Of a stretch of DNA of 11,722 nt, positions 1 to 11,722 are shown one piece after another. Where the stretch lies: positions 1-11,722 of the IMG/VR virus record IMGVR_UViG_2671180606_000004; one strand, 5' to 3'. A model generated the notes under the pieces. It worked only from the letters and a program-made list of their open reading frames with translations, was not told the origin of the DNA and did not search any database. Source of the stretch: a virus. Taxonomy: Duplodnaviria; Heunggongvirae; Uroviricota; Caudoviricetes. The translations under genes and the position numbers were made by a program. How positions within the stretch are numbered: the stretch's first letter is position 1; the number at the start of each line of letters is the position of its first letter.

Positions 1-94
1 TTACCTGATTTTCCAGAGTGCTGATCCGGGTGTCTGCTGTTGCCAGATTTTGACGTAGCGTTGTGTTTTCCTCTTCCAGCGCGGTAAGCGGATT
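1..94 (-). other. ORF fragment in a different frame from V (…[31 protein letters not shown]…), open from the V junction and running off the window start; coiled-coil-like; probably part of a distal gene joined to V by deletion
   Basis: Minus-strand frame opens after a stop at 95-97 and has no stop before position 1; heptad-like, protein-like composition; lambda V homology ends at about 88. Identity unknown. Confidence 0.35.
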
Positions 95-420
95 TTATAG
101 GCACGGGTATCACCTTCATTAAACCACGCCAGCAGCGCCTGCTGCCCCTGCTCTCCGGGCATCCACGCCAGCGTGAAGCTGGTATCTCCGGCAGATTTCT
201 GCCCCTGCCCGGTCGCAGTCCAGTCTGCATCTTCATCATCGAGATAGCTGTCGTCATAGGACTCAGCGGTCAGTTCGCCGGGCGTCAGGTCTTTAACTTT
301 TGCCAGACGCGACCAGTCAACGTCTGAAAGCGGGTTCGCATAAGGGTCACCGCTCCCCTTATAAACCCACAGGGTGGTCCCGGCACCTTTCACCGGCATT
401 ACAGGATTTGGTACAGGCAT
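1..420 (-). pseudogene. V: Phage lambda major tail protein V, N-terminal ~111 aa only; C-terminal half replaced by unrelated sequence (junction about position 88), reading to a stop at 1-3
   Basis: Translation from ATG 420-418 ([36 protein letters not shown]…[11 protein letters not shown]) matches lambda gpV N-terminus as recalled; after AYKIR it diverges ([12 protein letters not shown]…). Lambda gpV is about 246 aa. The track ORF begins at an upstream alternative start (450). Confidence 0.85.
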
Positions 421-427
421 AGCGTCC

Positions 428-823
428 TCACATTTCATAGGTAATGACATAAGTCAGATCGGCTGAACTCCACAGGCCCGCATCATCGTCGCGCCGGTAG
501 TCATAGCCACTGGCCACCATACTGGTGATCAAATCTGACAGTGCCGGGATATCGCTCATCACCGGATAAATCCGGGACTCCATCCACGAATCCAGCTCTG
601 AATCCGGCACCTGAGCAGGCAGGAAAACTTCAATATGCAGCTCCGCCTGCCAGGTATCGCTGTCCAGCTCTTCGCCCGTGTATTCAGCGCCGGTGAGATA
701 AACGGCAATTGCCGGAAAATCTTCCTCATCAAAAACAGCGGGGCGACCATCAAAAAGCGTCGCCCCGGTGTCATGCTTCTCCAGTGCATCCAGTACGGCT
801 GCACGGAGTTCAGTATGTTTCAT
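428..823 (-). CDS. U: Tail terminator protein U (lambda gpU), 131 aa
   Basis: Full-length near-identity to lambda gpU as recalled ([22 protein letters not shown]…LTYVITYEM); ATGA stop-start overlap with Z as in lambda. Confidence 0.95.
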
Positions 824-1398
824 CGCTTTATTACCATTCTCAGTTGATGCTGCAGCGCATAGCCCAGCTCTTTCGGAAGACGTTCACGCCGTATCCGTTC
901 AATATTCTGTTTAAACGCCGTGGTCAGCGGCACCGCCATCGGGATTTTCACCACATCAATGGGGTAACGGTTTTTCCCGGCCACACGCTGCATGACATGC
1001 CAGCGGCCATTTTTCAGTTGCTGAATAAACGCGCCGGGAATACGACGGTTACCCACCACAAGCACGCTGCCGCCATCTTTCAGGGCTGAACGCTGCCCCT
1101 TTTTACGACGCCTGCGTCGGGACAGGACAACCCGCGCGTTACCCAGCTTGATTACGGGCAAATCCCCCCGGTTAACCTTGATTCTGGCCTGTGGATTTTT
1201 GACCGTGGCCCTTTTCAGCCTGGCCCTTTCCTTTACCAGTTTCCGGCGTACCTTTGTCTCACGGGCAACCTGTGCCACCGACTGCGATATCGCGGATGAA
1301 GCAACGCGGTTAATGGCCATTGCGGCGGCACCGGGCACCGCCGTTCTGCTGATACGGCTGAGGTTTTCAACGGCCTGCTCAAGACCTTTTATGGCCAT
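820..1398 (-). CDS. Z: Tail completion protein Z (lambda gpZ), 192 aa
   Basis: Full-length near-identity to lambda gpZ as recalled (MAIKGLEQAVENLSRIS…HQLRMVIKR); GGGGGA Shine-Dalgarno upstream of ATG. Confidence 0.95.
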   Translation of the reverse strand: MAIKGLEQAVENLSRISRTAVPGAAAMAINRVASSAISQSVAQVARETKVRRKLVKERARLKRATVKNPQARIKVNRGDLPVIKLGNARVVLSRRRRRKKGQRSALKDGGSVLVVGNRRIPGAFIQQLKNGRWHVMQRVAGKNRYPIDVVKIPMAVPLTTAFKQNIERIRRERLPKELGYALQHQLRMVIKR

Positions 1399-1409
1399 AC
1401 ATCCCCCTT

Positions 1410-1763
1410 TCAGCGGCGACGGTTAACGGCAGGCGGTACGCCCCGCCCAAGCCAGAGATGACAGCTTCCGCCATCATCCGGCGAAATCCGGTCTATCCAG
1501 AAGTTTTCCTCACCGATGCTCAGCGTGTCGCCGCGCCGCAGCTGCCGCACATCATCAGTCCGGACAAACAGGGACGGGCTGGAGCCTTCAACGCGCACGC
1601 CCTGTCCGGCATAGCTGATATTTTCAGGGTCATCAAAAACACCACGTATTACTGCGCCGGACTGCTCACCGGATGTAATGGTGGCTGACGTTCCCATGTA
1701 CCCGCGTATCGTTTCATCGGCGCGGGCAATGGCGGCATCGAACAGGTTATCGAAATCAGCCAC
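1410..1763 (-). CDS. FII: Head-tail joining protein FII (lambda gpFII), 117 aa, GTG start
   Basis: Near-identity to lambda gpFII as recalled (MADFDNLFDAAIARADETIRGYMG…GRGVPPAVNRRR); GTG start with GGGAGG Shine-Dalgarno, as in lambda. Confidence 0.95.
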   Translation of the reverse strand: MADFDNLFDAAIARADETIRGYMGTSATITSGEQSGAVIRGVFDDPENISYAGQGVRVEGSSPSLFVRTDDVRQLRRGDTLSIGEENFWIDRISPDDGGSCHLWLGRGVPPAVNRRR

Positions 1764-1774
1764 AGCGCCTCCCG

Positions 1775-2170
1775 TTATTGCATTCTGGCCTGGCCGCGCT
1801 CTGTCATTTCGGCTGCCACACCGGCAGAGACACGAAACGCCGTTCCCGGCAGCACAAATGCCACAGCCTCATCCCGCGTGGCGTGAAGTGCATCAGTATG
1901 CAGCGTCACCAGTGCCACAACCGTGACCAGAGCAGCCGTATCAGTCACGGTATCCGTCTGTGCTGATACCACCTCATTTTCATGTCCGGTCAGTGCATTT
2001 TCCGGGCTGACAGACGTGTCCTGACCGGCTGCGTCATCCGTGTCATCAAGCTCCTCTTCCAGCTCTGCCACACGGAGCGCCAGTTCTTCTTTCGTCCCCG
2101 TCAGGCTGACATCACGGTTCAGTTGCTCACCCAGCGACCGGAGACGGGCAATCAGTTCATCTTTCGTCAT
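1775..2170 (-). CDS. FI: Head DNA-packaging/stabilisation protein FI (lambda gpFI)
   Basis: From ATG 2170-2168 (GGAGGAG Shine-Dalgarno upstream) the translation MTKDELIARLRSLGEQLNRDVSLTGTKEELALRVAEL… matches lambda gpFI as recalled; the track ORF starts at an upstream GTG (2209). Confidence 0.9.
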   Translation of the reverse strand: MTKDELIARLRSLGEQLNRDVSLTGTKEELALRVAELEEELDDTDDAAGQDTSVSPENALTGHENEVVSAQTDTVTDTAALVTVVALVTLHTDALHATRDEAVAFVLPGTAFRVSAGVAAEMTERGQARMQ

Positions 2171-2211
2171 GAACTCCTCCACAGAGAGAAAATGGCCCCG
2201 AAGGGCCACGA

Positions 2212-2748
2212 TTACGCCAGTTGTACGGAAACGAACTCATCAGGGTCAGCCAGCAGCATCAGCGGTGCTGACTGAATCATGGTGAACTCACGCGCCGGAT
2301 CGCCGGTGGTCACCCAGTTTTTCGGGTAACGGGCAGAGGCGTTAATGCCTTCGCGCTGTGCGTCCGCATCCTGAATGCAGCCATAGGTGCGCAGACCGCG
2401 AGCCTGAGTGTTCCCCAGCACCATCGTGTTGTCCGGCAGGAAGTTCTTTTTGACGCCGTTTTCCACGTACTGTCCGGAATACACGACGATGGCCACATCG
2501 CCATACATTCCCTTACCCTGGCGACGCGCCTTACGCGTTAACCAGCCTTCTGCTTCCAGCCGTGCGATAGCCGTTCTGACGGTACTCATCCCCGCGCCAA
2601 TCTGGCGGGCAATGGTTTCAATTGATGGCCAGCACACACCTTCGTCATTACTGAAATCAGCCAGGCGGGCCATAATTGCCACGCTGGATAATTTCATGCC
2701 TGACGCAGCGCAACCATCCCATACATAGCCGGTTAATTTAGTGCTCAT
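2212..2748 (-). CDS. Chimeric ORF: N-terminal ~78 aa winged-helix/HTH domain (HTH_36-like, as in phage replication-initiator proteins) fused in frame to the C-terminal ~100 aa of lambda major capsid protein E (E-derived part about 2212..2511)
   Basis: Residues from about 81 (MYGDVAIVVYSGQYVENGVKKNFLPDNTMVLGNTQARGLRTYGCIQDADAQREGINASARYPKNWVTTGDPAREFTMIQSAPLMLLADPDEFVSVQLA) match the lambda gpE C-terminus as recalled. Residues 1-78 (…SSVAIMARLADFSNDEGVCWPSIETIARQIGAGMSTVRTAIARLEAEGWLTRKARRQ) resemble the N-terminal DNA-binding domain of phage replication initiators. Lambda gpE is 341 aa, so its N-terminal ~240 aa are missing. Confidence 0.8.
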   Translation of the reverse strand: MSTKLTGYVWDGCAASGMKLSSVAIMARLADFSNDEGVCWPSIETIARQIGAGMSTVRTAIARLEAEGWLTRKARRQGKGMYGDVAIVVYSGQYVENGVKKNFLPDNTMVLGNTQARGLRTYGCIQDADAQREGINASARYPKNWVTTGDPAREFTMIQSAPLMLLADPDEFVSVQLA

Positions 2749-2757
2749 GACCGACCT

Positions 2758-3096
2758 CTATTTCCCTGAATTTACGACGAAACTGTTCGAGCGGGCTGAA
2801 GCACTCATGCTCATAGCCCTCGCGGAGGTAGATAACCCGTTGTGTTTCCGGCTCCCAACGAATGACTCTGACGGGCACTCCGTAGTGATCTTTGAACCAG
2901 CGGTTAACTTGTCGCAAAGGACTGTCTCCTTCTGCCGGTTGAAATCACCCACAGCCCACTCTGCAAAGCTGTGGGTTACAATTTCCCTGTCACCTGGTAC
3001 ATTCACTGCATAGCAATATTCCACCTTCGCTTTTCCACCCGGTACAGGAAGCGCAATCAGTTGCGAGCGACGGTAGTGTGTTGTTAAACTGTTCAT
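2758..3096 (-). CDS. Hypothetical early-operon protein; possibly frame-disrupted (C-terminal part may continue in the -1 frame to a stop at 2738-2740)
   Basis: ATG at 3096 overlaps the stop of the upstream cII-like gene (ATGA coupling). The N-terminal 50 aa look protein-like; the annotated frame ends in low-complexity sequence ([16 protein letters not shown]), while the -1 frame from about 2944 reads a convincing peptide (…[61 protein letters not shown]) whose stop overlaps the ATG of the next gene. Confidence 0.45.
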
Positions 3097-3701
3097 GCGT
3101 TAGTTTCTCCACAGTCACGACACGCCACGGCGCCCGGAGCTGCACACTCGCGGGCGTCATTACTTTCTGAAATGCAAAAAATTTTGTAGACCAGTGCTGC
3201 ATGCTCCTGCAGCTTCGAAATTGAGAGGTAGAGCTCGTCATTAATTGCTGTCTTCTCATGCGGTTCCACTACACCGTCTTCGATTGCTGAACGAATCTGT
3301 TTTGAATAACTGCCGATCTGTTCAATGACTTCCAGCAGACGCTGGTTAATATCGGCGTTGTCCACATCCTCGACGTCAGGAAGAGACACAAAGACGCCAT
3401 TTGCAGACTGCGCCACAGCATCAGCAATGAAGTGAGTTCCACCAGCACGTTGCAAAATCATTGCCCATCCCAGCGGGAAAATCTGATCGCCATCGGCACG
3501 AAGGCGGTTAAATAATGCGTTCTCTGTTACATCCAGCCAGTCAGCAGCTTCAGCGTAACCCCCCGGCAACGCTGCGATAGTTTTTCTGACAGCTTTCACG
3601 TACCACTCAGGCTGTTTTTCTACTTTCCAGTGATGCTTACCCACGGTTAGCCTCATCGTTCTGTGGTTTCTGTTAATCGATTTATCCATTAGATTTTTCA
3701 T
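3093..3701 (-). CDS. Early regulatory protein in the cII position (CII/CP76-like or YdaT-like; family uncertain), about 202 aa
   Basis: ORF immediately downstream of the cro-like gene in the same operon. Start set at ATG 3701 (or 3689) rather than the track start 3758, which would overlap cro by 77 nt. Family assignment is by position and loose resemblance only. Confidence 0.55.
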
Positions 3702-3882
3702 AAAGCTCAGGTTTAAATGGCAACCGTCCGCAAGTTCTATATGCAGCTTCTGCTGCACGTCCTTTTGGAATTAACTGGCCCGGACGGTTTCGCCACTGAT
3801 AAACGGCTTCAGTTGTTATGCCGAAAAAAGCAGCAACTTTCTCAATACTGCCGAAGTAGCTTTCGATATCGTCAGTTGTCAT
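3682..3882 (-). CDS. Cro-like small HTH repressor (Cro/YdaS-type), 66 aa
   Basis: Small ORF divergent from the CI-like repressor; motif …[45 protein letters not shown] typical of Cro/YdaS-family proteins; GGAGGG Shine-Dalgarno upstream. Confidence 0.8.
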   Translation of the reverse strand: MTTDDIESYFGSIEKVAAFFGITTEAVYQWRNRPGQLIPKGRAAEAAYRTCGRLPFKPELYEKSNG

Positions 3883-3979
3883 ACGCCCTCCAAACTAAGT
3901 TTTATTAGATGCTAATTACAAATCTATCTTTGGTCAATAAAAACTAAGATTACTTAGTAATTAAAGAAATGGTGCTCCT
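3883..3979. promoter_or_regulatory. Divergent cI/cro intergenic control region: palindromic operator candidate ACTAAG-ATTA-CTTAGT (3943..3958), inverted repeat ATTAG-N3-CTAAT (3904..3916), two AACTAAG copies, candidate cro promoter on minus strand (-35 TTGACC 3932..3937, -10 TAGCAT 3909..3914)
   Basis: 97-bp AT-rich spacer between divergent repressor genes; perfect 6-4-6 palindrome; sigma70-like hexamers with 17-bp spacing read on the minus strand. Promoter assignment is by eye. Confidence 0.5.
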
Positions 3980-4606
3980 ATGGAAACGGTTGGTCAGCGT
4001 ATAAAAGCTCTGAGAAGAGTTACCAGAACGTCCCAGAAAGAATTGGGTAAATTTTGTGGAGTAAGCGACGTTGCTGTGGGGTACTGGGAGAAAGACATCA
4101 ATACCCCTGGTGGGGAGGCACTTTCGAAATTAGCGAAGTTCTTCAATACGTCAATAGATTACATTCTTTATGGTGCTGAGTTTGAAGGCAAACTCGTCAC
4201 AAACATGCGCAGAGTTCCTGTAATATCGTGGGTTCAGGCTGGGCAGTTTACTGAGTGCAGGGCAGCAGAAGTGTTTAGTGAAGTGGACAAGTGGGTAGAT
4301 ACATCATTAAAGATTGGTGATAACTCATTTGCATTAGAGGTTAAAGGTGACTCCATGACTAACCCTAATGGCCTCCCAACAATACCAGAAGGCGCAACAG
4401 TGATTGTAGATCCAGATGCAGAACCTCGTCATGGAAAAATAGTCATCGCTCGACTTGATGGAACAAACGAAGCTACAGTAAAAAAATTAGTCATCGATGG
4501 CCCTCAAAAGTTTTTAGTGCCATTAAATCCTCGGTATCCCAACATCCCTATCAATGGTAATTGCCTTATCATTGGTGTAGTCAAAGGAGTTCAATACGAA
4601 CTCTAA
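3980..4606 (+). CDS. CI-like prophage repressor: N-terminal XRE-type HTH plus C-terminal S24 (LexA/CI-type) autopeptidase domain, 208 aa
   Basis: HTH motif (QKELGKFCGVSDVAVGYWEKD…), catalytic Ser in GDSM and Lys in KKL with spacing typical of S24 peptidases; divergent from the cro-like gene. Confidence 0.9.
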   Translation: METVGQRIKALRRVTRTSQKELGKFCGVSDVAVGYWEKDINTPGGEALSKLAKFFNTSIDYILYGAEFEGKLVTNMRRVPVISWVQAGQFTECRAAEVFSEVDKWVDTSLKIGDNSFALEVKGDSMTNPNGLPTIPEGATVIVDPDAEPRHGKIVIARLDGTNEATVKKLVIDGPQKFLVPLNPRYPNIPINGNCLIIGVVKGVQYEL

Positions 4607-4690
4607 GACCTCTCTTCTCTAACTAAGGCACCGAACTAAGAAAAGTTTGGTGTTTTCTCTTGCCATAATAACTAAGTTAAGTTAGATTTT
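4607..4690 (+). promoter_or_regulatory. Candidate pL-like promoter/operator region downstream of the repressor gene: three direct AACTAAG repeats (4621, 4634, 4670) and possible -35 TTGCCA (4660..4665) / -10 TAGATT (4683..4688)
   Basis: Same heptamer as in the cI/cro spacer; hexamers with 17-bp spacing on the plus strand, pointing away from cI. By-eye call. Confidence 0.3.
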
Positions 4691-4812
4691 ATGTCAAAGA
4701 TAACGAACAGGCAGGACGCCCACGAAGTAGCCGCCTGGGGCATATGAAGTCCAGGATGATTCGTTGAGTCATGTTGTGCCACTAGGCACTCATGTTAAAG
4801 CAGGTGTATGAA

Positions 4813-5088
4813 ATGAAAGTCCAGATTTTAAACAATAACTGTGAAGTCGTTTGGTCATACGACATAGCCGCCCATGTAGATCAGAGCGGCGATAGCTGGG
4901 CCAATGGGAAACATCAGATTATGGCTGGAGTTGTATTCTCTTTACGCCGTGCTTTAGAACAGGCTGAAGTCTTTCCATCAGACCCTGAATGGAAATGGCC
5001 TTTTTCTATTTGTCCAAATTCGGAGAGTACATTTCAGAAAATTGGTCAGAAAGTCGCACTCGAAGAGCATCAGCCAACTGTTTCCTGA
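4813..5088 (+). CDS. Hypothetical protein, 91 aa (first ORF downstream of the repressor, N position of a lambdoid map; no N-like Arg-rich motif)
   Basis: ORF with AGGTG Shine-Dalgarno 7 nt upstream of ATG 4813 (track start 4792 lacks one). Its 3' end is overlapped by an equally plausible antisense frame (5006..5263, minus), so the call is uncertain. Confidence 0.4.
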   Translation: MKVQILNNNCEVVWSYDIAAHVDQSGDSWANGKHQIMAGVVFSLRRALEQAEVFPSDPEWKWPFSICPNSESTFQKIGQKVALEEHQPTVS

Positions 5089-5504
5089 TTTTTTCAGGTA
5101 ACTCGTCGGCATCGCAGAAACAACAACGCTCGATCATGTTGAAAGCCGATTCGTAGAACTGTTTTTGCTGAGTGTCGCTGAGACAGGAAAAGAGCGACGT
5201 TACGATGATTTTATTAATTGCATTATCAAGTTCTTTTTCATCAAAAGTTATTTGATTTTCCTTTTATGTATACGGGCTTAAAAGGATACCACCGAGCCTG
5301 AAGTGGTGAAAAGACAGGCACATAACAGCTAAGTATTTTCAACCAGAGAGAATCCTTAGCGTTGTGGTGAATGCGGCTCAGCGCACGCGGGTTAAGGTTG
5401 AGGCTGACAGTCGACCTTCTGTGGATACCCACCCGCCTGGTGTGCAACCTTCGCCAGGCACCGGGAGGCACCCGGCACCACAACTTTATGCTGTGTGTAG
5501 TCCT

Positions 5505-5552
5505 GGCGGTACCAGTTTGTACACTTGCTTCCGGCTGGTACCGCTCTTTTTA
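5505..5552 (+). terminator. Rho-independent terminator candidate: perfect 10-bp stem GCGGTACCAG/CTGGTACCGC, 19-nt loop, followed by TCTTTTTA
   Basis: Base pairing checked position by position (5506-5515 with 5535-5544); U-tract immediately 3' on the plus strand. Lies in an ORF-poor spacer upstream of the yfdP-like gene. Confidence 0.5.
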
Positions 5553-5688
5553 CAAAACAGAGAAGAGCATCACCGGACGACGGGCTCATAACCCAATCCA
5601 TCCGGGCGGCTGCCACCGCAGGTGTTCTTCTCTGTTTTGTGGAGAAACTAATCGGCCTTGCAGGGTCGATATGATGAGGAGCAACAAA

Positions 5689-6051
5689 ATGGCTAGCGAA
5701 CGCAGTACTGATGTGCAGGCATTTATCGGGGAGCTGGACGGCGGCGTATTTGAAACAAAAATCGGCGCAGTTCTCAGTGAAGTCGCTTCCGGTGTGATGA
5801 ACACGAAAACCAAAGGTAAGGTCTCACTCAACCTGGAAATCGAACCATTTGATGAGAACCGTGTGAAAATCAAACACAAACTCTCATATGTTCGCCCGAC
5901 TAACCGCGGGAAAATTTCCGAAGAAGACACCACCGAAACGCCGATGTATGTCAATCGCGGTGGTCGCCTGACTATTCTGCAGGAAGACCAGGGACAATTA
6001 CTGACTCTTGCCGGTGAACCTGACGGAAAACTCCGCGCAGCAGGTCATTAA
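5689..6051 (+). CDS. yfdP: YfdP-like hypothetical prophage protein, 120 aa
   Basis: ATG 5689 with GAGGAG Shine-Dalgarno 8 nt upstream; size and position match the yfdP-yfdQ-yfdR-yfdS block of CPS-53 as recalled. The track ORF start at 5371 is an upstream read-through of non-coding-looking sequence. Confidence 0.75.
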   Translation: MASERSTDVQAFIGELDGGVFETKIGAVLSEVASGVMNTKTKGKVSLNLEIEPFDENRVKIKHKLSYVRPTNRGKISEEDTTETPMYVNRGGRLTILQEDQGQLLTLAGEPDGKLRAAGH

Positions 6052-6116
6052 TATCGTTCTTAATTAACTGATTATTTATTTCATCACTGAATATCTTTAT
6101 ATAGTGAGGACTTATT

Positions 6117-6941
6117 ATGTCTCAGAACTTAGACGCAACCGCAATTAATCAAATCCATGCCCTTATTTCTGCTCAGGGTGTTAATGAAATTATCAGTAAG
6201 ATTGGTGCCGATGCTGTGGCATTGCCTGAGAATTTCCGCATTCATGATCTGGAAAAATTTAATTTAAATCGCTTCCGTTTCCGTGGTGCGCTTTCCACTG
6301 CCAGCATCGATGACTTTACCCGTTATTCTAAAGATCTTGCAGATGAAGGCACCCGCTGCTTTATCGATGCTGATAATATGCGTGCCGTCAGTGTGCTTAA
6401 CCTGGGTACTATTGATGAACCAGGTCACGCAGATAACACCGCCACTCTCAAACTGAAAAAGACAGCACCGTTCTCTGCTCTGTTGTCTGTTAATGGCGAG
6501 CGTAACTCCCAGAAATCACTGGCAGAATGGATTGAAGACTGGGCTGACTACCTTGTGGGCTTTGATGCTAATGGTGACACCATTCAGGCAACAAAAGCGG
6601 CTGCGGCGGTCCGTAAAATCACGATTGAAGCAAACCAGACCGCTGATTTTGAAGATAATGACTTCAGCGGCAAACGCTCCCTGATGGAGTCTGTCGAAGC
6701 GAAGACCAAAGACATTATGCCAGTGGCATTTGAATTTAAATGCATTCCGTTTGAAGGTCTGAAAGAACGTCCGTTTAAATTACGCCTCAGCATTATCACT
6801 GGCGATCGTCCGGTACTGGTTCTGCGCATTATTCAGCTGGAGGCGGTGCAGGAAGAAATGGCTAACGAATTTCGTGATCTGCTTGTTGAGAAATTCAAGG
6901 ACAGCAAAGTAGAAACCTTTATTGGTACTTTCACCGCCTGA
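6117..6941 (+). CDS. yfdQ: YfdQ-like hypothetical prophage protein (DUF2303-type), 274 aa
   Basis: Well-formed ORF with GAGGA Shine-Dalgarno; length and neighbourhood match K-12 YfdQ as recalled. Confidence 0.8.
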
Positions 6942-6953
6942 TTTCATTACTGC

Positions 6954-6981
6954 AAATGCCCCTGCGGGGGCATTTATGGAA
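6954..6981 (+). terminator. Hairpin AAATGCCCC-TGCG-GGGGCATTT (perfect 9-bp stem, 4-nt loop) downstream of the yfdQ-like gene; possible terminator or attenuator
   Basis: Perfect inverted repeat 6954-6962 / 6967-6975 with GC-rich core; only a short U-tract follows. Confidence 0.4.
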
Positions 6982-7068
6982 ACGTAATTGACTCAATAAT
7001 CGCCGGGTGGTGGGGGCTTCCTTTTACCAGAATTCAGCGCGGTGCAGCGCATATACGTGGAGAACAAA

Positions 7069-7605
7069 ATGTCATTTATTAAAACTTTTTCCGGGAAGCA
7101 TTTTTATTATGACAGGATAAATAAAGACGACATCGTTATTAACGATATCGCGGTTTCCCTTTCAAATATCTGCCGCTTTGCAGGACACCTTTCACACTTC
7201 TACAGCGTCGCCCAACATGCGGTGCTTTGCAGCATGCTGGTACCGCAGGAATTTGCTTTTGAAGCATTAATGCATGATGCAACAGAAGCGTATTGCCAGG
7301 ACATCCCCGCACCACTGAAACGCCTCCTTCCTGACTATAAACGGATGGAAGAAAAAATAGACGCCGTAATCCGTGAGAAATACGGGTTACCTCAGGCTAT
7401 GAGCACGCCCGTGAAATATGCCGATCTCATCATGCTGGCAACCGAACGCCGCGATCTCGGGCTTGATGATGGCTCTTTCTGGCCTGTACTGGAAGGTATC
7501 CCGGCAACAGAGATGTTCAACGTGATTCCACTGGCACCGGGCCATGCCTATGGGATGTTTATGGAACGCTTCAACGAGTTATCGGAGTTACACAAATACG
7601 CATAA
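7069..7605 (+). CDS. yfdR: HD-domain phosphohydrolase (YfdR-like, 5'-deoxynucleotidase-type), 178 aa
   Basis: H…HD…D motif (AQHAVLCS…LMHDATEAYCQDIP…); start at ATG 7069 (MSFIKTFSGKHFYYD…) with GGAG Shine-Dalgarno, rather than track start 7042; size matches K-12 YfdR as recalled. Confidence 0.85.
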   Translation: MSFIKTFSGKHFYYDRINKDDIVINDIAVSLSNICRFAGHLSHFYSVAQHAVLCSMLVPQEFAFEALMHDATEAYCQDIPAPLKRLLPDYKRMEEKIDAVIREKYGLPQAMSTPVKYADLIMLATERRDLGLDDGSFWPVLEGIPATEMFNVIPLAPGHAYGMFMERFNELSELHKYA

Positions 7606-7616
7606 ATGTTTTCGAA

Positions 7617-7957
7617 ATGGAAGGGTTTCTTCGCGGGAAATGTGTACCGCGAGATCTGAAAGTGAATGAAACAGATGCTGAATACCTGGTACGTAAATTC
7701 GATGCGCTTGAAGCTAAATGTGCAGCACTGGAAAAAAAGTAATACCAGTGTCAGCTGAACTGCCGCCAGCAAATGAAAGTGTTCTGTTATTTGATGCTAA
7801 TGGAGAAGGCTGGCTGATTGGCTGGCGTTCTCTCTGGTACACATGGGGGCAAAAAGAAACCGGAGAATGGCAGTGGACATTCCAGGTCGGGGACCTTGAA
7901 AACGTCAATATCACTCACTGGGCAGTAATGCCGAAAGCACCGGAGACTAAGAAATGA
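7617..7957 (+). pseudogene. yfdS: YfdS-like gene split into two frames at an A7 tract: 7617..7742 (41 aa, stop TAA) and the -1 frame continuing to 7957; frameshift mutation, homopolymer sequencing error or programmed -1 frameshift
   Basis: Upstream frame MEGFLRGKCVPRDLKVNETDAEYLVRKFDALEAKCAALEKK ends at TAA directly after the heptamer A AAA AAG (7733..7739); the -1 frame continues VIPVSAELPPANESVLLFDANGEGWLIGW… to 7957. Combined length about 114 aa (K-12 YfdS is 120 aa as recalled). Confidence 0.6.
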
Positions 7958-8169
7958 GCGTGATAAAAACTCATACAGGAATTGTTATCACGCAAGACGG
8001 TGACAAGCGGATGAAATTACATTCTACTGAAATGTCCTGGGTTGCCGGACGTTGTGAATCCTACGACAAAAAGACTGGTTACCATTGGGGGGCGCCAAAC
8101 ATGCGTCGCCGTCTGCTCCTGGACAGAATCAGGCCAATTAAACAGGTAGCAACCAGAGAGCAAAATTAA
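7954..8169 (+). CDS. Small hypothetical prophage protein, 71 aa (yfdT position)
   Basis: ATGA stop-start overlap with the preceding gene; GGAG Shine-Dalgarno 8 nt upstream. Confidence 0.6.
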   Translation: MSVIKTHTGIVITQDGDKRMKLHSTEMSWVAGRCESYDKKTGYHWGAPNMRRRLLLDRIRPIKQVATREQN

Positions 8170-8231
8170 TTATCAGGACTGGAATTTGATATTACTGCCC
8201 GTGTGCAGCGGGCTAAGTGGAGAAAAGACTC

Positions 8232-8456
8232 ATGAGCAACCGCTTCCTGACTGATGAAGAACTGATAGAGGCGACAGGGTCTTCCCAAAAGTCACTACAG
8301 AAAGAAGTCTTAACGCAGAATGGCATTTTTTTTATTGAACGCAGGGACGGTTCTGTAAAAACGACCTGGTTTCATATAAATCATCCCATTCATCGTTTGG
8401 CTCCACCAGCAGGTTTCTCGCCCACTCCGGGTATGAACTTTGATGCTATAGAGTGA
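8232..8456 (+). CDS. Putative excisionase / recombination directionality factor (small protein directly upstream of int), 74 aa
   Basis: ATG 8232 with GGAG Shine-Dalgarno (track start 8217 is GTG); stop 5 nt before int. Function inferred from position, size and N-terminal motif MSNRFLTDEELIEATG…; not similar to lambda Xis. Confidence 0.55.
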   Translation: MSNRFLTDEELIEATGSSQKSLQKEVLTQNGIFFIERRDGSVKTTWFHINHPIHRLAPPAGFSPTPGMNFDAIE

Positions 8457-8460
8457 AATT

Positions 8461-9447
8461 ATGGGTCGAAAACGAGCACCTGGTAATGAATGGATGCCGA
8501 AGGGGGTATATTTCCGCCCTTCTGGCTACTACTGGAAACCAGGGGGAACAACAGAAAAAATTGCATCAGCCAATGCAACAAAAGCAGATGTCTGGGTTGC
8601 TTTTGAAAAAATTGTAGAGGGGAGAAAAAGACGAATAACTTTTGCCCAGCTTTGGAAGAAATTTCTCAATAGTGCCGATTATGCAGATTTGGCACCACGA
8701 ACTCAAAAGGATTATCTAGCCCACGAAAAATATCTCCTTGCTGTTTTTGGCGAAGCGGAAGCAAAGACTATTAGACCAGAACATGTAAGGCGGTATATGG
8801 ATGCCAGAGGAAAGAAAAGTCGTGTCCAAGCTAACCATGAGCACAGTTCAATGTCTCGGGTATTTCGTTGGGGATACCAACGAGGATATGTTCCTGGAAA
8901 TCCTTGCGTTGGAGTAGATAAATTCCCTAAACCAAAGCGTGATCGCTACATCACAGATGAGGAATACATGGCGATTTATGAACACGCCAGTGAGCCAGTT
9001 AAAGCCGCAATGGAAATAGCTTATTTATGTGCAGCGAGGGTATCCGATGTCTTGAAAATGGACTGGCCGCAGATAATGGATAAAGGAATTTTTATTCAGC
9101 AGGGCAAGACGGGAGTTAAGCAGATCAAGGCGTGGACTGATCGCCTGCGCGCGGCAGTTGATATTTGCAGATCGTGGGGGGAAACAGGGTCAGTAATTAA
9201 AACCATGTATGGAGAGCGTTACTCTTACAAGGGGTTTAATGAGGCATGGCGAAAAGCAAGAACAGCGGCAGCCAACTATCTTGGAAGACCTCTGGATTGT
9301 ACATTTCATGATCTGAAAGCTAAAGGAATTTCTGACTATGAAGGATCATCAAAAGAAAAGCAGCTATTTAGTGGGCACAAAACTGAATCACAAGTCATGG
9401 TTTATGATAGAAAAATACGCATCACACCAACATTAAATAAAAATTAG
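8461..9447 (+). CDS. int: Tyrosine site-specific integrase, lambda Int family, 328 aa
   Basis: Aligns with lambda Int as recalled: N-terminal MGRKR…GYYW arm-binding region, catalytic-domain landmarks AARVSDV (Arg-I), QGKTGVK (Lys), TFHDLK (box II His), GHK, VMVYDR (Tyr nucleophile). Confidence 0.95.
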   Translation: MGRKRAPGNEWMPKGVYFRPSGYYWKPGGTTEKIASANATKADVWVAFEKIVEGRKRRITFAQLWKKFLNSADYADLAPRTQKDYLAHEKYLLAVFGEAEAKTIRPEHVRRYMDARGKKSRVQANHEHSSMSRVFRWGYQRGYVPGNPCVGVDKFPKPKRDRYITDEEYMAIYEHASEPVKAAMEIAYLCAARVSDVLKMDWPQIMDKGIFIQQGKTGVKQIKAWTDRLRAAVDICRSWGETGSVIKTMYGERYSYKGFNEAWRKARTAAANYLGRPLDCTFHDLKAKGISDYEGSSKEKQLFSGHKTESQVMVYDRKIRITPTLNKN

Positions 9448-9451
9448 ACTC

Positions 9452-9473
9452 TAAGTGCGCGTTAGCGCACTTA
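9452..9473. terminator. Perfect inverted repeat TAAGTGCGC-GTTA-GCGCACTTA between convergent int and the AT-rich operon; candidate bidirectional terminator
   Basis: 9-bp perfect stem with 4-nt loop in the 23-bp gap between convergent stops; the stop codon of the 265-aa gene lies in the 3' arm; T-rich flank on the plus side. Confidence 0.4.
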
Positions 9474-10268
9474 TTCAAATAGTTCAGGGAATACTAATTG
9501 TAGTGAATTCATGAATTTATCAATATCTTCAGGAGGTTCTTGCTCACGAAACCACTTGTCACACACTTCATTGACATAAATTTTCGCTTGTCCGACCTTC
9601 AAGGATTTATTCTCTCGTCCACTTTTATCAGCAGGGTTATAGTGCAAACTTAAAATAAAATTTCTAACCTTTACTTCTTTTCCCTTTTTTGAAACTATAT
9701 TGTAGTCAAAATAACATTCATCACCGGTAAACGCATTTGCTATGGGGCTCTTTTTAAAATGATATCGGCACTCATCAAGCCTATCAGAAATAGCCTTATA
9801 TTTTTCAAAATCACCAGAGCTAAGGTAGCTGAACCAATTTTTAAAGTAACTTAATGAATCAAGTTTCTGATGGTAAATAAAGAAACCTGCATGTTTCTCA
9901 TCAGAAATATATCTTGTTACTAACTGTAACATGCCTTCAAAGACACCATTATACGAATTCCCTCTTTTTGCTTCAGCGAGCCAAGTAAAGCTCTGATCAC
10001 GATCCTGAACTGTAATATCGACGGAACCATTAGATTTTGTTTGTTCAGATGCGTTGTACCCAACACCTTTGAGAAATAAAACCAGTAAATTAGTGATCTT
10101 ATCTTCATCATCTGAATAATATTTATCCGCAGTCTTCTCAATATGCTTAATTGCATTATTTATATCGGCATATAGACTTTGTACAAACACATCCTCATCG
10201 AATGGCTTCAAGTTTACCAGCGCGGCTAATTCGGCAGGTGTTATATTTTGAAGAAAATTATTTGACAT
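9471..10268 (-). CDS. Hypothetical protein, 265 aa, third gene of the AT-rich operon; possible PD-(D/E)xK nuclease-like core (…GSVDITVQD…FTWLAEAKRG…)
   Basis: Long ORF in a visibly AT-rich segment; ATG overlaps the stop of the upstream gene by 11 nt. The D…E-x-K spacing is the only motif recognised and is an inference. Confidence 0.7.
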   Translation of the reverse strand: MSNNFLQNITPAELAALVNLKPFDEDVFVQSLYADINNAIKHIEKTADKYYSDDEDKITNLLVLFLKGVGYNASEQTKSNGSVDITVQDRDQSFTWLAEAKRGNSYNGVFEGMLQLVTRYISDEKHAGFFIYHQKLDSLSYFKNWFSYLSSGDFEKYKAISDRLDECRYHFKKSPIANAFTGDECYFDYNIVSKKGKEVKVRNFILSLHYNPADKSGRENKSLKVGQAKIYVNEVCDKWFREQEPPEDIDKFMNSLQLVFPELFE

Positions 10269-10689
10269 TTAATATACAGTAAAAAGAAATGTTATTAACA
10301 TCGAAATCATCTATTTCGCGCCCAGACAATAAACTGATCGGAGAAATATCACAAATCAGAGCATTATAGTAGCATTCTGCTGAAATAGGGATTTCTTCAC
10401 CATCAAAATCATAATAGCAATAAGTTATATTAAATAATTTAGAATGTGCACCACAAAAATAACGGACTAACTTTAGCAAATCCGAGTCCGATTCACAGCC
10501 TGCCGCTTGCCTTAATACATTAATCGGGTAATAATTTTTATCATAATTATTTTGAATGAAATCCAAAACATTATTGAATAGAAAGATATCTTCTTCAGGA
10601 AAGATATCTTTCATTTCATCCAATAATATCCTTTGTTCAGACAAAAGCATCATTATGACCTTGATTCTATCATTTTCGTGAGATGACAT
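10258..10689 (-). CDS. Hypothetical protein, about 143 aa, middle gene of the AT-rich operon
   Basis: ORF overlapping both neighbours (about 20 nt upstream, 11 nt downstream), suggesting translational coupling; start taken at ATG 10689 (track start 10695 is TTG). No family recognised. Confidence 0.65.
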   Translation of the reverse strand: MSSHENDRIKVIMMLLSEQRILLDEMKDIFPEEDIFLFNNVLDFIQNNYDKNYYPINVLRQAAGCESDSDLLKLVRYFCGAHSKLFNITYCYYDFDGEEIPISAECYYNALICDISPISLLSGREIDDFDVNNISFYCILNVK

Positions 10690-11722
10690 TTTCAATTAAA
10701 CCATTTAATGAGATTGTATCTTCAGGAAAATCAACATAAAATTCGCCACAAAAATTATCATCCAACCAAGATTTCTTATTTGGATCTAGACCCAATTCTG
10801 TAAAGTCACCATTATTTCTGTAAAATCTTACGGCTACAGCACGTGGTGTATAAATATCATTTCTTTTCTTATTAGTAATCTCGACATCTCGAGCTTCATA
10901 TGTCGGATCTTTGCGGCCAATGACATTAGCATCACAACCTGTATTAGAACCAACATAAATTATCTGAACTGCTTTCCCGAACGATCTATCAGTAATAATG
11001 CTATTGATCACATTATAAAAATTCAATTGTTTGAAATGAATAGTATTATTAGTACTGATGAGCATATCAAAAAATTTATTACGCACCGATGCAAGCGCTT
11101 TTGCTGTCTCCCGTTTCCCTAAATTTTTTGGAAGACGATACTCGATCCTATTTTTATTATGGGGAACAAATACTGTTATAAATTGTTGCTGTGGGGTATA
11201 CGATAGTCCTAAACCGCGACTTCCCTTAATCTTAACACTATAAACATATGAGAAAATAAAAGCAAAGCCATCGCCAGTATCAATTAATTTAGTCAGATAA
11301 AGACCTTTGATATTGTTCCCAAGTGAATTACCATCATATAACTTTCTTGGATAAGAATTTTCATACCTTGAATCAGTTACACTTGTACTAAAAACATGTT
11401 GGATCACACTTTGGAAATTTGGGTCTTGTGTTTCGTCAATAGAATAATAGTGACTACCAGAGATTATTATTCTATCGATCATTTTCTCAAGTGAATTTAA
11501 TGTAGCATTAGGAAATGCAGCTGTTGGATTCTGTATAGATGCCTCGATTGCCTTCAAAACCGCATCCATTCCACCTTTAACAGGTGGAAATCCATACACA
11601 GTTGCTATCTGAGAAATAAATGAATATAGATTGGTCTGCTCAAGCGCAGTAATCAAATCAGATAATACTTGTTGACTATTGTTGGCAACAACAGGCGTAG
11701 CAAATGCGCTAGATGAATTCAT
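10670..11722 (-). CDS. Hypothetical protein, at least 350 aa, first gene of the AT-rich operon; the ATG coincides with the last 3 nt of the window, so the true start and promoter may lie beyond the window
   Basis: Uninterrupted 350-codon frame in an AT-rich segment; no Walker or other catalytic motif recognised by eye. Confidence 0.7.
   Translation of the reverse strand: MNSSSAFATPVVANNSQQVLSDLITALEQTNLYSFISQIATVYGFPPVKGGMDAVLKAIEASIQNPTAAFPNATLNSLEKMIDRIIISGSHYYSIDETQDPNFQSVIQHVFSTSVTDSRYENSYPRKLYDGNSLGNNIKGLYLTKLIDTGDGFAFIFSYVYSVKIKGSRGLGLSYTPQQQFITVFVPHNKNRIEYRLPKNLGKRETAKALASVRNKFFDMLISTNNTIHFKQLNFYNVINSIITDRSFGKAVQIIYVGSNTGCDANVIGRKDPTYEARDVEITNKKRNDIYTPRAVAVRFYRNNGDFTELGLDPNKKSWLDDNFCGEFYVDFPEDTISLNGLIENVISRK

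Follow-up and report, generated by a model that had tools for sequence, protein, structure and literature searches.

The E. coli K-12 elements Rac, Qin, DLP12, and e14 are the classical cases of deletion-decayed lambdoid prophages and of prophage domestication. Residing at tRNA sites, they have lost blocks of late genes by internal deletions with junctions of a few bases, and they have kept the integrase, the immunity region, 3' fragments of tail fiber genes, and cargo. The locus described here, contained in a window of 11,722 nucleotides (the whole stretch of DNA analyzed, positions 1 to 11,722 of IMG/VR record IMGVR_UViG_2671180606_000004), appears to resemble them in all of these respects. 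It differs from them in that its pair of junctions is strain-specific and apparently recent, with FI, FII, Z, and U still intact, and in that both att ends have been kept.

Two types of phage tail protein are relevant to the left end of the window. The first 111 residues encoded by a fragment termed V' are a close homolog of lambda gpV, and the corresponding DNA is 97.6 to 99.3% identical to lambda-like V; however, V' is devoid of the last third of the tube domain and of the entire C-terminal Ig-like domain and carries 28 out-of-frame residues from stf instead. The adjoining 87 nucleotides are identical to the coiled-coil-encoding 3' end of the genes for lambdoid side tail fiber proteins (Stf) of the S74 type (Ayreon, mEp460, and the HS prophage), but only 43 of their 1,044 to 1,258 codons survive, with neither phage_tail_N, fiber shaft, and S74 motif nor a start codon.

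Results

Structure of the V-stf junction

On the minus strand, homology to lambda V extends from position 420 down to approximately positions 86 to 88, covering V residues 1 to 111 and ending with the residues AYKIR, and is followed by 28 further codons up to the stop codon at the window edge (Table 1). This course had been described in the original prediction and was reproduced by base-by-base alignment, which placed the crossover at positions 86 and 87. The V frame is contained in a minus-strand ORF spanning positions 450 to 1, the true V start being at 420. The gene caller's product in assembly GCA_030004355.1 is identical to the 139-residue V' protein; the 149-residue version starting at the upstream ATG at position 450 gave no record in the exact-protein look-up. 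A megablast search with window positions 1 to 1200 as the query identified positions 82 to 1200 as lambda-like V-U-Z DNA (97.6 to 99.3% identity; for V at positions 88 to 420, 99.3% to ET201 and others), with over 3,400 complete E. coli genomes and approximately 90 phages matching, and all alignments ended at window position 82.

At the protein level, V' matched the Pfam family Phage_TTP_12 (PF16461; E = 9.6e-48) at profile positions 1 to 96 of 135 only, i.e., the complete N-terminal tube domain (positions 1 to 135) is not present. When the 28-residue tail was compared with 50,697 phage records by tblastn, four hits were obtained, all of them beneath side-tail-fiber genes in a different frame; the tail was never found under a major tail protein in these records, and full-length V homologs with the same C terminus, as expected for a natural variant, were sought there with no result. 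The chaperone genes G and T and the tape measure gene H were not found after V', their place being taken by stf and tfa remnants followed by OloA and OloB. Since the tail exists only as out-of-frame stf, the profile ends at position 96 of 135, and G, T, and H do not follow, V is truncated, as had been proposed, and the V' fragment does not qualify as a functional gpV.

A second minus-strand frame, bounded by TAA at positions 97 to 95, is open from position 94 and runs off the left edge of the window, continuing for 47 nucleotides past it to end in ...SELVALVRQLTGSEH and a stop codon. Its heptad-like sequence, noted previously, was confirmed: one register has L, L, A, L, L, L at its a positions and N, L, I, V, V, E at its d positions (10 of 12 hydrophobic), whereas the remaining registers have 2 to 7 hydrophobic residues of 12 to 13. 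This frame had been regarded as an unrelated coiled-coil ORF. A search with window positions 1 to 100, however, revealed a match of positions 1 to 87 to a tail fiber gene with 100% identity (E = 5e-36) in approximately 800 complete E. coli genomes, where the annotation was always prophage tail fiber, S74-family peptidase, or tail fiber domain-containing protein. In the phage collection, the same positions lie beneath the "side tail fiber protein" of Ayreon, mEp460, and PhiR70_1, and the stf gene of Ayreon, a viable phage, contains 87 nucleotides identical to window positions 1 to 87. The 87-nucleotide segment is located 48 to 134 nucleotides from the stf stop codon in HS, WCHEC035148, F3, and Ayreon; the stf-frame reading of the fragment agrees with the Stf proteins of F3 and HS, and identity to stf reached 87 of 87 nucleotides. 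From its position and identity in these four, the ORF represents the very 3' end of stf, with which V's own late operon closes; leftward extension and a search thus identified the coiled-coil gene as a tail fiber gene.

The surviving stf segment encodes residues ~1002 to 1044, i.e., the last 43 codons, and the Peptidase_S74 domain ("chaperone of endosialidase"), found by Pfam at residues 901 to 952 of the 1,044-residue F3 Stf, is located upstream of it. Both phage_tail_N and S74 are present in the intact Stf proteins of HS and WCHEC035148 and absent from the window, where the 43 codons retained lie 3' of these domains. The F3 Stf ORF matched Peptidase_S74 only, its N-terminal part being annotated as a separate pseudogene. 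When the C-terminal 165 residues of Stf were searched against PDB sequences, the S74 region resembled the chain "Long tail fiber distal subunit" of entry 6f45; the last 43 residues matched generic coiled coils only (APC, BicD, and P22 gp26; E of 0.04 or worse), which supports a coiled-coil character and not homology. As no in-frame ATG, GTG, or TTG occurs between the upstream stop codon of the stf remnant and its own stop codon, the remnant is a relic and not a gene, and the frame "opening" at position 94 is not a functional ORF. Judged from its sequence, the fragment likewise does not count as a functional Stf.

In every relative inspected, an S74-type stf is followed by a tfa gene without its N terminus (Table 1), so that the tfa truncation is older than the V-stf deletion; it may be explained by redundancy of Tfa for fibers that possess their own chaperone domain.

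The window strand at the junction (...CCAGCGCGGTAAGCGGATTTTATAGG...) was aligned with the parental stf of HS (...CCAGCGCGGTAACGCGATCATCTG...) and the parental V of ET201 (...GCCGTTCGGGAAGCGGATTTTATAGG...). The window corresponds to stf through position 87 and to V from position 86, with the crossover located within the AA at positions 86 and 87. Strictly common are these two bases only, T85 being specific for stf and G88 for V; the CGG at positions 82 to 84 is also common, giving 5 of 6 shared bases in an imperfect microhomology CGG(T/G)AA. The claim of a true recombination junction inside V, with downstream sequence in another frame, was thus borne out by alignment to the V of ET201 and the stf of HS. 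A microhomology of 2 bp is too short to be distinguished statistically from a blunt join, and the junction carries what appears to be the signature of illegitimate, microhomology-level joining. Site-specific recombination of the Pin/Gin/Cin type was rejected as the origin of the junction, since no gix/cix-like core (AAACC-NN-GGTTT, at most two mismatches) was found in window positions 1 to 300 or in either parental breakpoint region and the stretch from stf to att of the source contig contains no recombinase gene. Mechanistically, the junction is not unusual.

Table 1. Features of the locus and their coordinates in the window or in related loci (L006, F3)
Feature	Window position	Strand	Position in related loci	Description
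Putative deletion junction 2 (V'::'stf)	82..87			CGGTAA on the + strand; alignment with parental V (ET201) and parental stf (HS)
V'	88..420	-		5' part of V, the major tail tube gene (lambda type), encoding residues 1-111 of ~246
V' fusion ORF in its present form	1..420	-		139 aa: V 1-111 plus 28 residues of out-of-frame stf; TAA at 3-1
stf 3' remnant	1..87	-		Coiled-coil tail 3' of the S74 intramolecular-chaperone domain; start-less
U, tail terminator	428..823	-		Intact, 131 aa; Pfam Phage_tail_U; annotation in relatives
Z, tail completion	820..1398	-		Intact, 192 aa; Pfam Minor_tail_Z
FII, head-tail joining	1410..1763	-		Intact, 117 aa; Pfam Phage_attach
FI, DNA packaging	1775..2170	-		Intact, 131 aa; Pfam Packaging_FI
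O'::E' in-frame fusion ORF	2212..2748	-		N terminus of O-like replication protein plus C-terminal 100 residues of E
Putative deletion junction 1	2513..2515			TTA, 3-bp microhomology; blastn against F3
N-terminally truncated tfa			L005 10469-10650; L001 5780-5905; L004 4771-4905; L006 5352-5486	Source contig (L005) and relatives inspected
Block matching F3	1-87		L006 5582-5668	1 mismatch in 87 nt, 98.9% (97.8% over the 91-column alignment of window 1-90)
Block matching F3	82-2515		L006 19756-22189	97.0%
Block matching F3	2513-4765		L006 39516-41768	98.8%
Block matching F3	5289-11722		L006 42539-48971	99.6%

Comparison with co-linear relatives

E. coli F3 (NZ_CP195934.1) contains a co-linear, essentially full-length prophage of ~48 kb at the same tRNA-Ser (serU) site. 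Its gene order is IS4'-OloB-OloA-'tfa-stf-lom-J-I-K-L-M-H-T-G-V-U-Z-FII-FI-E-D-C-B-W-A-Nu1-lysis-Q in the left part and, after Q, ...-O-like HTH gene-DUF4222-ymfL-cro-cI-like-...-int-three hypothetical genes-tRNA-Ser-mtfA. A blastn comparison of the window with F3 yielded four blocks in the same order and orientation (Table 1), so that simple gaps relative to a co-linear prophage at the same attachment site account for the window. The gap at junction 2 comprises 14,093 bp (V codon 112 to stf codon ~1001) and that at junction 1 comprises 17,329 bp (replication gene to E). The order of V and stf is the same in the free-living phage Ayreon.

At junction 1, an O-like replication gene and E are fused in frame; in the product, Pfam found HTH_36 at residues 23 to 70 and Phage_cap_E at profile positions 228 to 328 of 329, and the fusion protein is on record in two contigs. 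The ~17.3 kb missing there relative to F3 comprises replication, Q, lysis, terminase, portal, and protease genes, D, and the 5' part of E, and the junction puts E'-FI-FII-Z-U-V' directly downstream of the early rightward operon. That only this block remains of the lambda structural module, as originally stated, holds for the block itself, which is present, but not for the word only: stf and tfa have likewise left their 3' ends, located at the left window edge and past it.

The E'-V' block (positions 82 to 2515) is 97.0% identical to F3, compared with 99.6 to 99.7% for its flanks, and up to 99.3% identical to other genomes (ET201 and others). Because the block is more diverged than the flanks, F3 is not the exact parent of the E'-V' module; an exchange of modules between lambdoid prophages before the deletions would have to be assumed, and the divergence probably reflects module-level mosaicism in the structural genes. 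The prophage of MLI104K1 at the same site carries a different head/tail module of the HNH/Terminase_4 type.

Positions 4766 to 5288 of the window (~520 bp, with a 98-aa ORF at 4792 to 5088 that had no family match) have no counterpart in F3, which contains a different segment of ~770 bp with an ECs1072-family gene at this place; this looks like a moron-type replacement beside the repressor gene.

JML285 was considered as a closer intact parent and rejected, as it carries a separate, independently rearranged remnant. There (NZ_AP024114.1, positions 3819500 to 3833300; L019), IS4'-OloB-OloA-'tfa-stf-lom-'J is joined directly to yfdR...int beside tRNA-Thr and proA, an arrangement that suggests recombination between prophages at two different tRNA sites.

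Source contig and prophage ends

Among 153 billion gene positions, the 139-residue V' protein had an exact match on one contig only, the 50-kb contig JAAQIM010000025.1 of GCA_030004355.1. The contig and the window agree in 10,419 of 10,420 bases and differ solely at window position 3558. At this position, which lies inside ymfL, the window has A and the contig C, and the YmfL allele of the window is very common in unrelated lambdoid prophages; the window thus probably derives from a sister assembly and not from this very record.

To the left of the window follow, in order, the stf end, the truncated tfa, a terminator-like hairpin, OloA/OloB, IS4 remnants, and att; beyond stf, this order is the same as in the relatives. 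The att site is an 80-bp copy of the tRNA-Ser 3' end (L005 15674 to 15753) next to yodB. At the other prophage end, as seen in the relatives, int lies beside tRNA-Ser and mtfA; the att repeats that border the prophage are thus retained. The chromosome past att encodes a cytochrome-b type protein (Ni_hydr_CYTB), ZinT, Ferric_reduct, Oxidored_molyb, and Transthyretin proteins, and a response regulator, presumably corresponding to the yodB-zinT-msrQ-msrP-hiuH-hprR neighborhood of K-12.

Just outside the left window edge, right after the stf/tfa remnants, two ORFs of 574 and 567 aa (L005 10949 to 14378) were identified by PADLOC as OloA (1e-110) and OloB (3e-207) of the Olokun system, which is listed among defense systems (PMC10121019). 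A query with the Olokun block was covered to at least 80% in 14 complete E. coli genomes. The alignments began at varied query positions (2, 176, 190, 332, and 643), so the adjoining stf/tfa end is kept to differing extents; direct inspection of the tail genes adjoining Olokun covered F3 (complete) and JML285 (rearranged). At the opposite end of the window (9471 to 11722, minus strand), three co-oriented ORFs of 265, ~131 to 145, and 350 aa are located between the integrase and the tRNA-Ser attachment site, a position typical of prophage cargo or defense genes. They are conserved in F3 and MLI104K1 and had no Pfam or PADLOC match.

The V-stf junction was absent from 5,426 complete E. coli genomes, and a 31-mer spanning window positions 70 to 100 had 0 matches in GTDB species representatives and 0 in JGI metagenome contigs, which tells that the scar is rare and no more. 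Besides the window, the junction is on record in one public draft assembly.

Discussion

We consider it very probable that window positions 1 to 120 represent a microhomology-mediated deletion scar in the late operon of a lambdoid serU prophage, in which V is joined out of frame to stf. The ancestral prophage was integrated at the serU tRNA-Ser gene, between mtfA and yodB of an E. coli-type chromosome, with the order ...E-FI-FII-Z-U-V-G-T-H-M-L-K-I-J-lom-stf-'tfa-OloA-OloB-IS4'-att. Missing are the ~14.1 kb between V codon 111 and the 44th-from-last stf codon, comprising the 3' part of V, the genes G, T, H, M, L, K, I, J, and lom, and the bulk of stf, very probably through a RecA-independent illegitimate deletion inside the late operon; the ends are joined at the common AA within CGG(T/G)AA. 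As the frames differ at the join, translation of V passes through 28 wrong-frame stf codons to TAA, and the real stf frame is left as a start-less, promoter-distal 43-codon relic for the C-terminal coiled coil. A second deletion of ~17.3 kb, from the replication gene to E and with a 3-bp microhomology, has created the in-frame fusion.

A different origin of the scar, proposed originally, is an illegitimate recombination in which the partner of V was an unrelated coiled-coil gene of foreign origin, for example, one for a tape measure or another structural protein. Such an event would agree with a coiled-coil frame that differs from the V frame and with a segment bearing no similarity to V or to the genes after V in lambda, but the segment matches the 3' end of stf with 100% identity, a co-linear prophage at the same att site has stf in the same operon and orientation and as far downstream as expected, and the relatives have an identical downstream flank ('tfa, Olokun, IS4', att). 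A foreign partner is hence highly improbable, and with stf in the same operon, order, and orientation as in intact relatives, the V-stf event is best read as a plain internal deletion of ~14.1 kb. An insertion in place of the two deletions appears very unlikely, too. In this case, a prophage whose lambda-type structural module was already gone or had never existed would have captured a 2.4-kb E'-V' fragment of another lambdoid phage, with the replication gene on one side and the stf end on the other. It could account for the 97.0% identity of the E'-V' block to F3, which is below that of the flanks, and related serU prophages can indeed have a non-lambda head module (MLI104K1). On the other hand, divergence of whole modules is usual among lambdoid prophages, F3 has a lambda-type module natively at exactly this place, and the insertion would require more events, namely, an illegitimate insertion with two ends in addition to the loss of the entire late region, with the native order and orientation between early genes and stf being a coincidence.

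The scar might also have been produced in silico, by wrong joining of V and stf reads from a tail region that is in reality intact: the source contig (50 kb) belongs to a short-read draft, E. coli genomes contain lambdoid tail genes repeatedly (a median of two places per genome), and no complete genome contains the junction. Assemblers, however, join at shared k-mers and not at similarities of 2 to 6 bp, and from one att site to the other, the contig remains co-linear with a single prophage, with a second similar scar 2.4 kb away. Moreover, the window and the database contig share the junction despite differing by one SNP, and the companion E-fusion protein was recorded on two contigs, so that we give an assembly chimera hardly any credence. 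Practically negligible is the probability of a natural V variant, that is, a short tube protein with a functional alternative C terminus present in some lambdoid phages. Although the ORF is intact up to its stop codon and was called as a 139-aa gene, phage genomes contain the alternative C terminus solely in the wrong frame of stf, the tube profile is cut at position 96 of 135, and none of the genes G, T, H, M, L, K, I, and J is present downstream; furthermore, the exact protein was encountered on one contig among 153 billion gene positions. Lastly, the O'::E'-FI-FII-Z-U-V' block could owe its retention to selection and not to the recent date of the deletions, serving, next to Olokun, as a dominant-negative structural decoy encoded by the prophage, an idea that we regard as very improbable. 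If it were true, the block could be expressed from the early rightward operon (cro-ymfL-...) upon repressor cleavage, and the tail or head assembly of superinfecting lambda-like phages could be poisoned by the E' fragment or by V(1-111) together with the basic tail of 28 residues.

Returning to the two deletions as the preferred reading, the sequences lost in all comprise the 3' 55% of V, the 5' 70% of E, most of stf and the replication gene, and, as whole genes or sets, G, T, H, M, L, K, I, J, lom, D, C, B, W, A, Nu1, the lysis genes, and Q. Replication, antitermination, lysis, and packaging functions are thereby gone, together with most of the head genes and the complete set of tail-tip genes. 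Both deletions are probably recent and lineage-specific, as FI, FII, Z, and U have their full length and the junction is present in one public assembly only. With terminase, portal, protease, D, the 5' part of E, the tail genes G to J, Q, and the lysis genes absent, the element would be unable to replicate, to lyse the cell, or to build heads or tails, and the earlier view that the prophage is defective for particle formation can be upheld on the basis of the missing head, tail, lysis, and Q genes. Presumably, the prophage is a grounded, non-inducible remnant that keeps its integrase, its immunity region (cI/cro-type), and its cargo, including Olokun.

For annotation, this means that the 139-aa "tail protein" and any "coiled-coil protein" at this place are pseudogene fragments, not a V variant or a new gene, and that the locus is to be scored as a non-inducible prophage remnant. 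The scar opens or settles no outstanding question; it is real and represents ordinary prophage decay, the standard route of lambdoid prophages to the cryptic state. As such, it is a clean illustration, on a small scale, of the reduction of lambdoid prophages, in this case by two microhomology deletions, with 31 kb gone and the integrase, the immunity region, and Olokun surviving.
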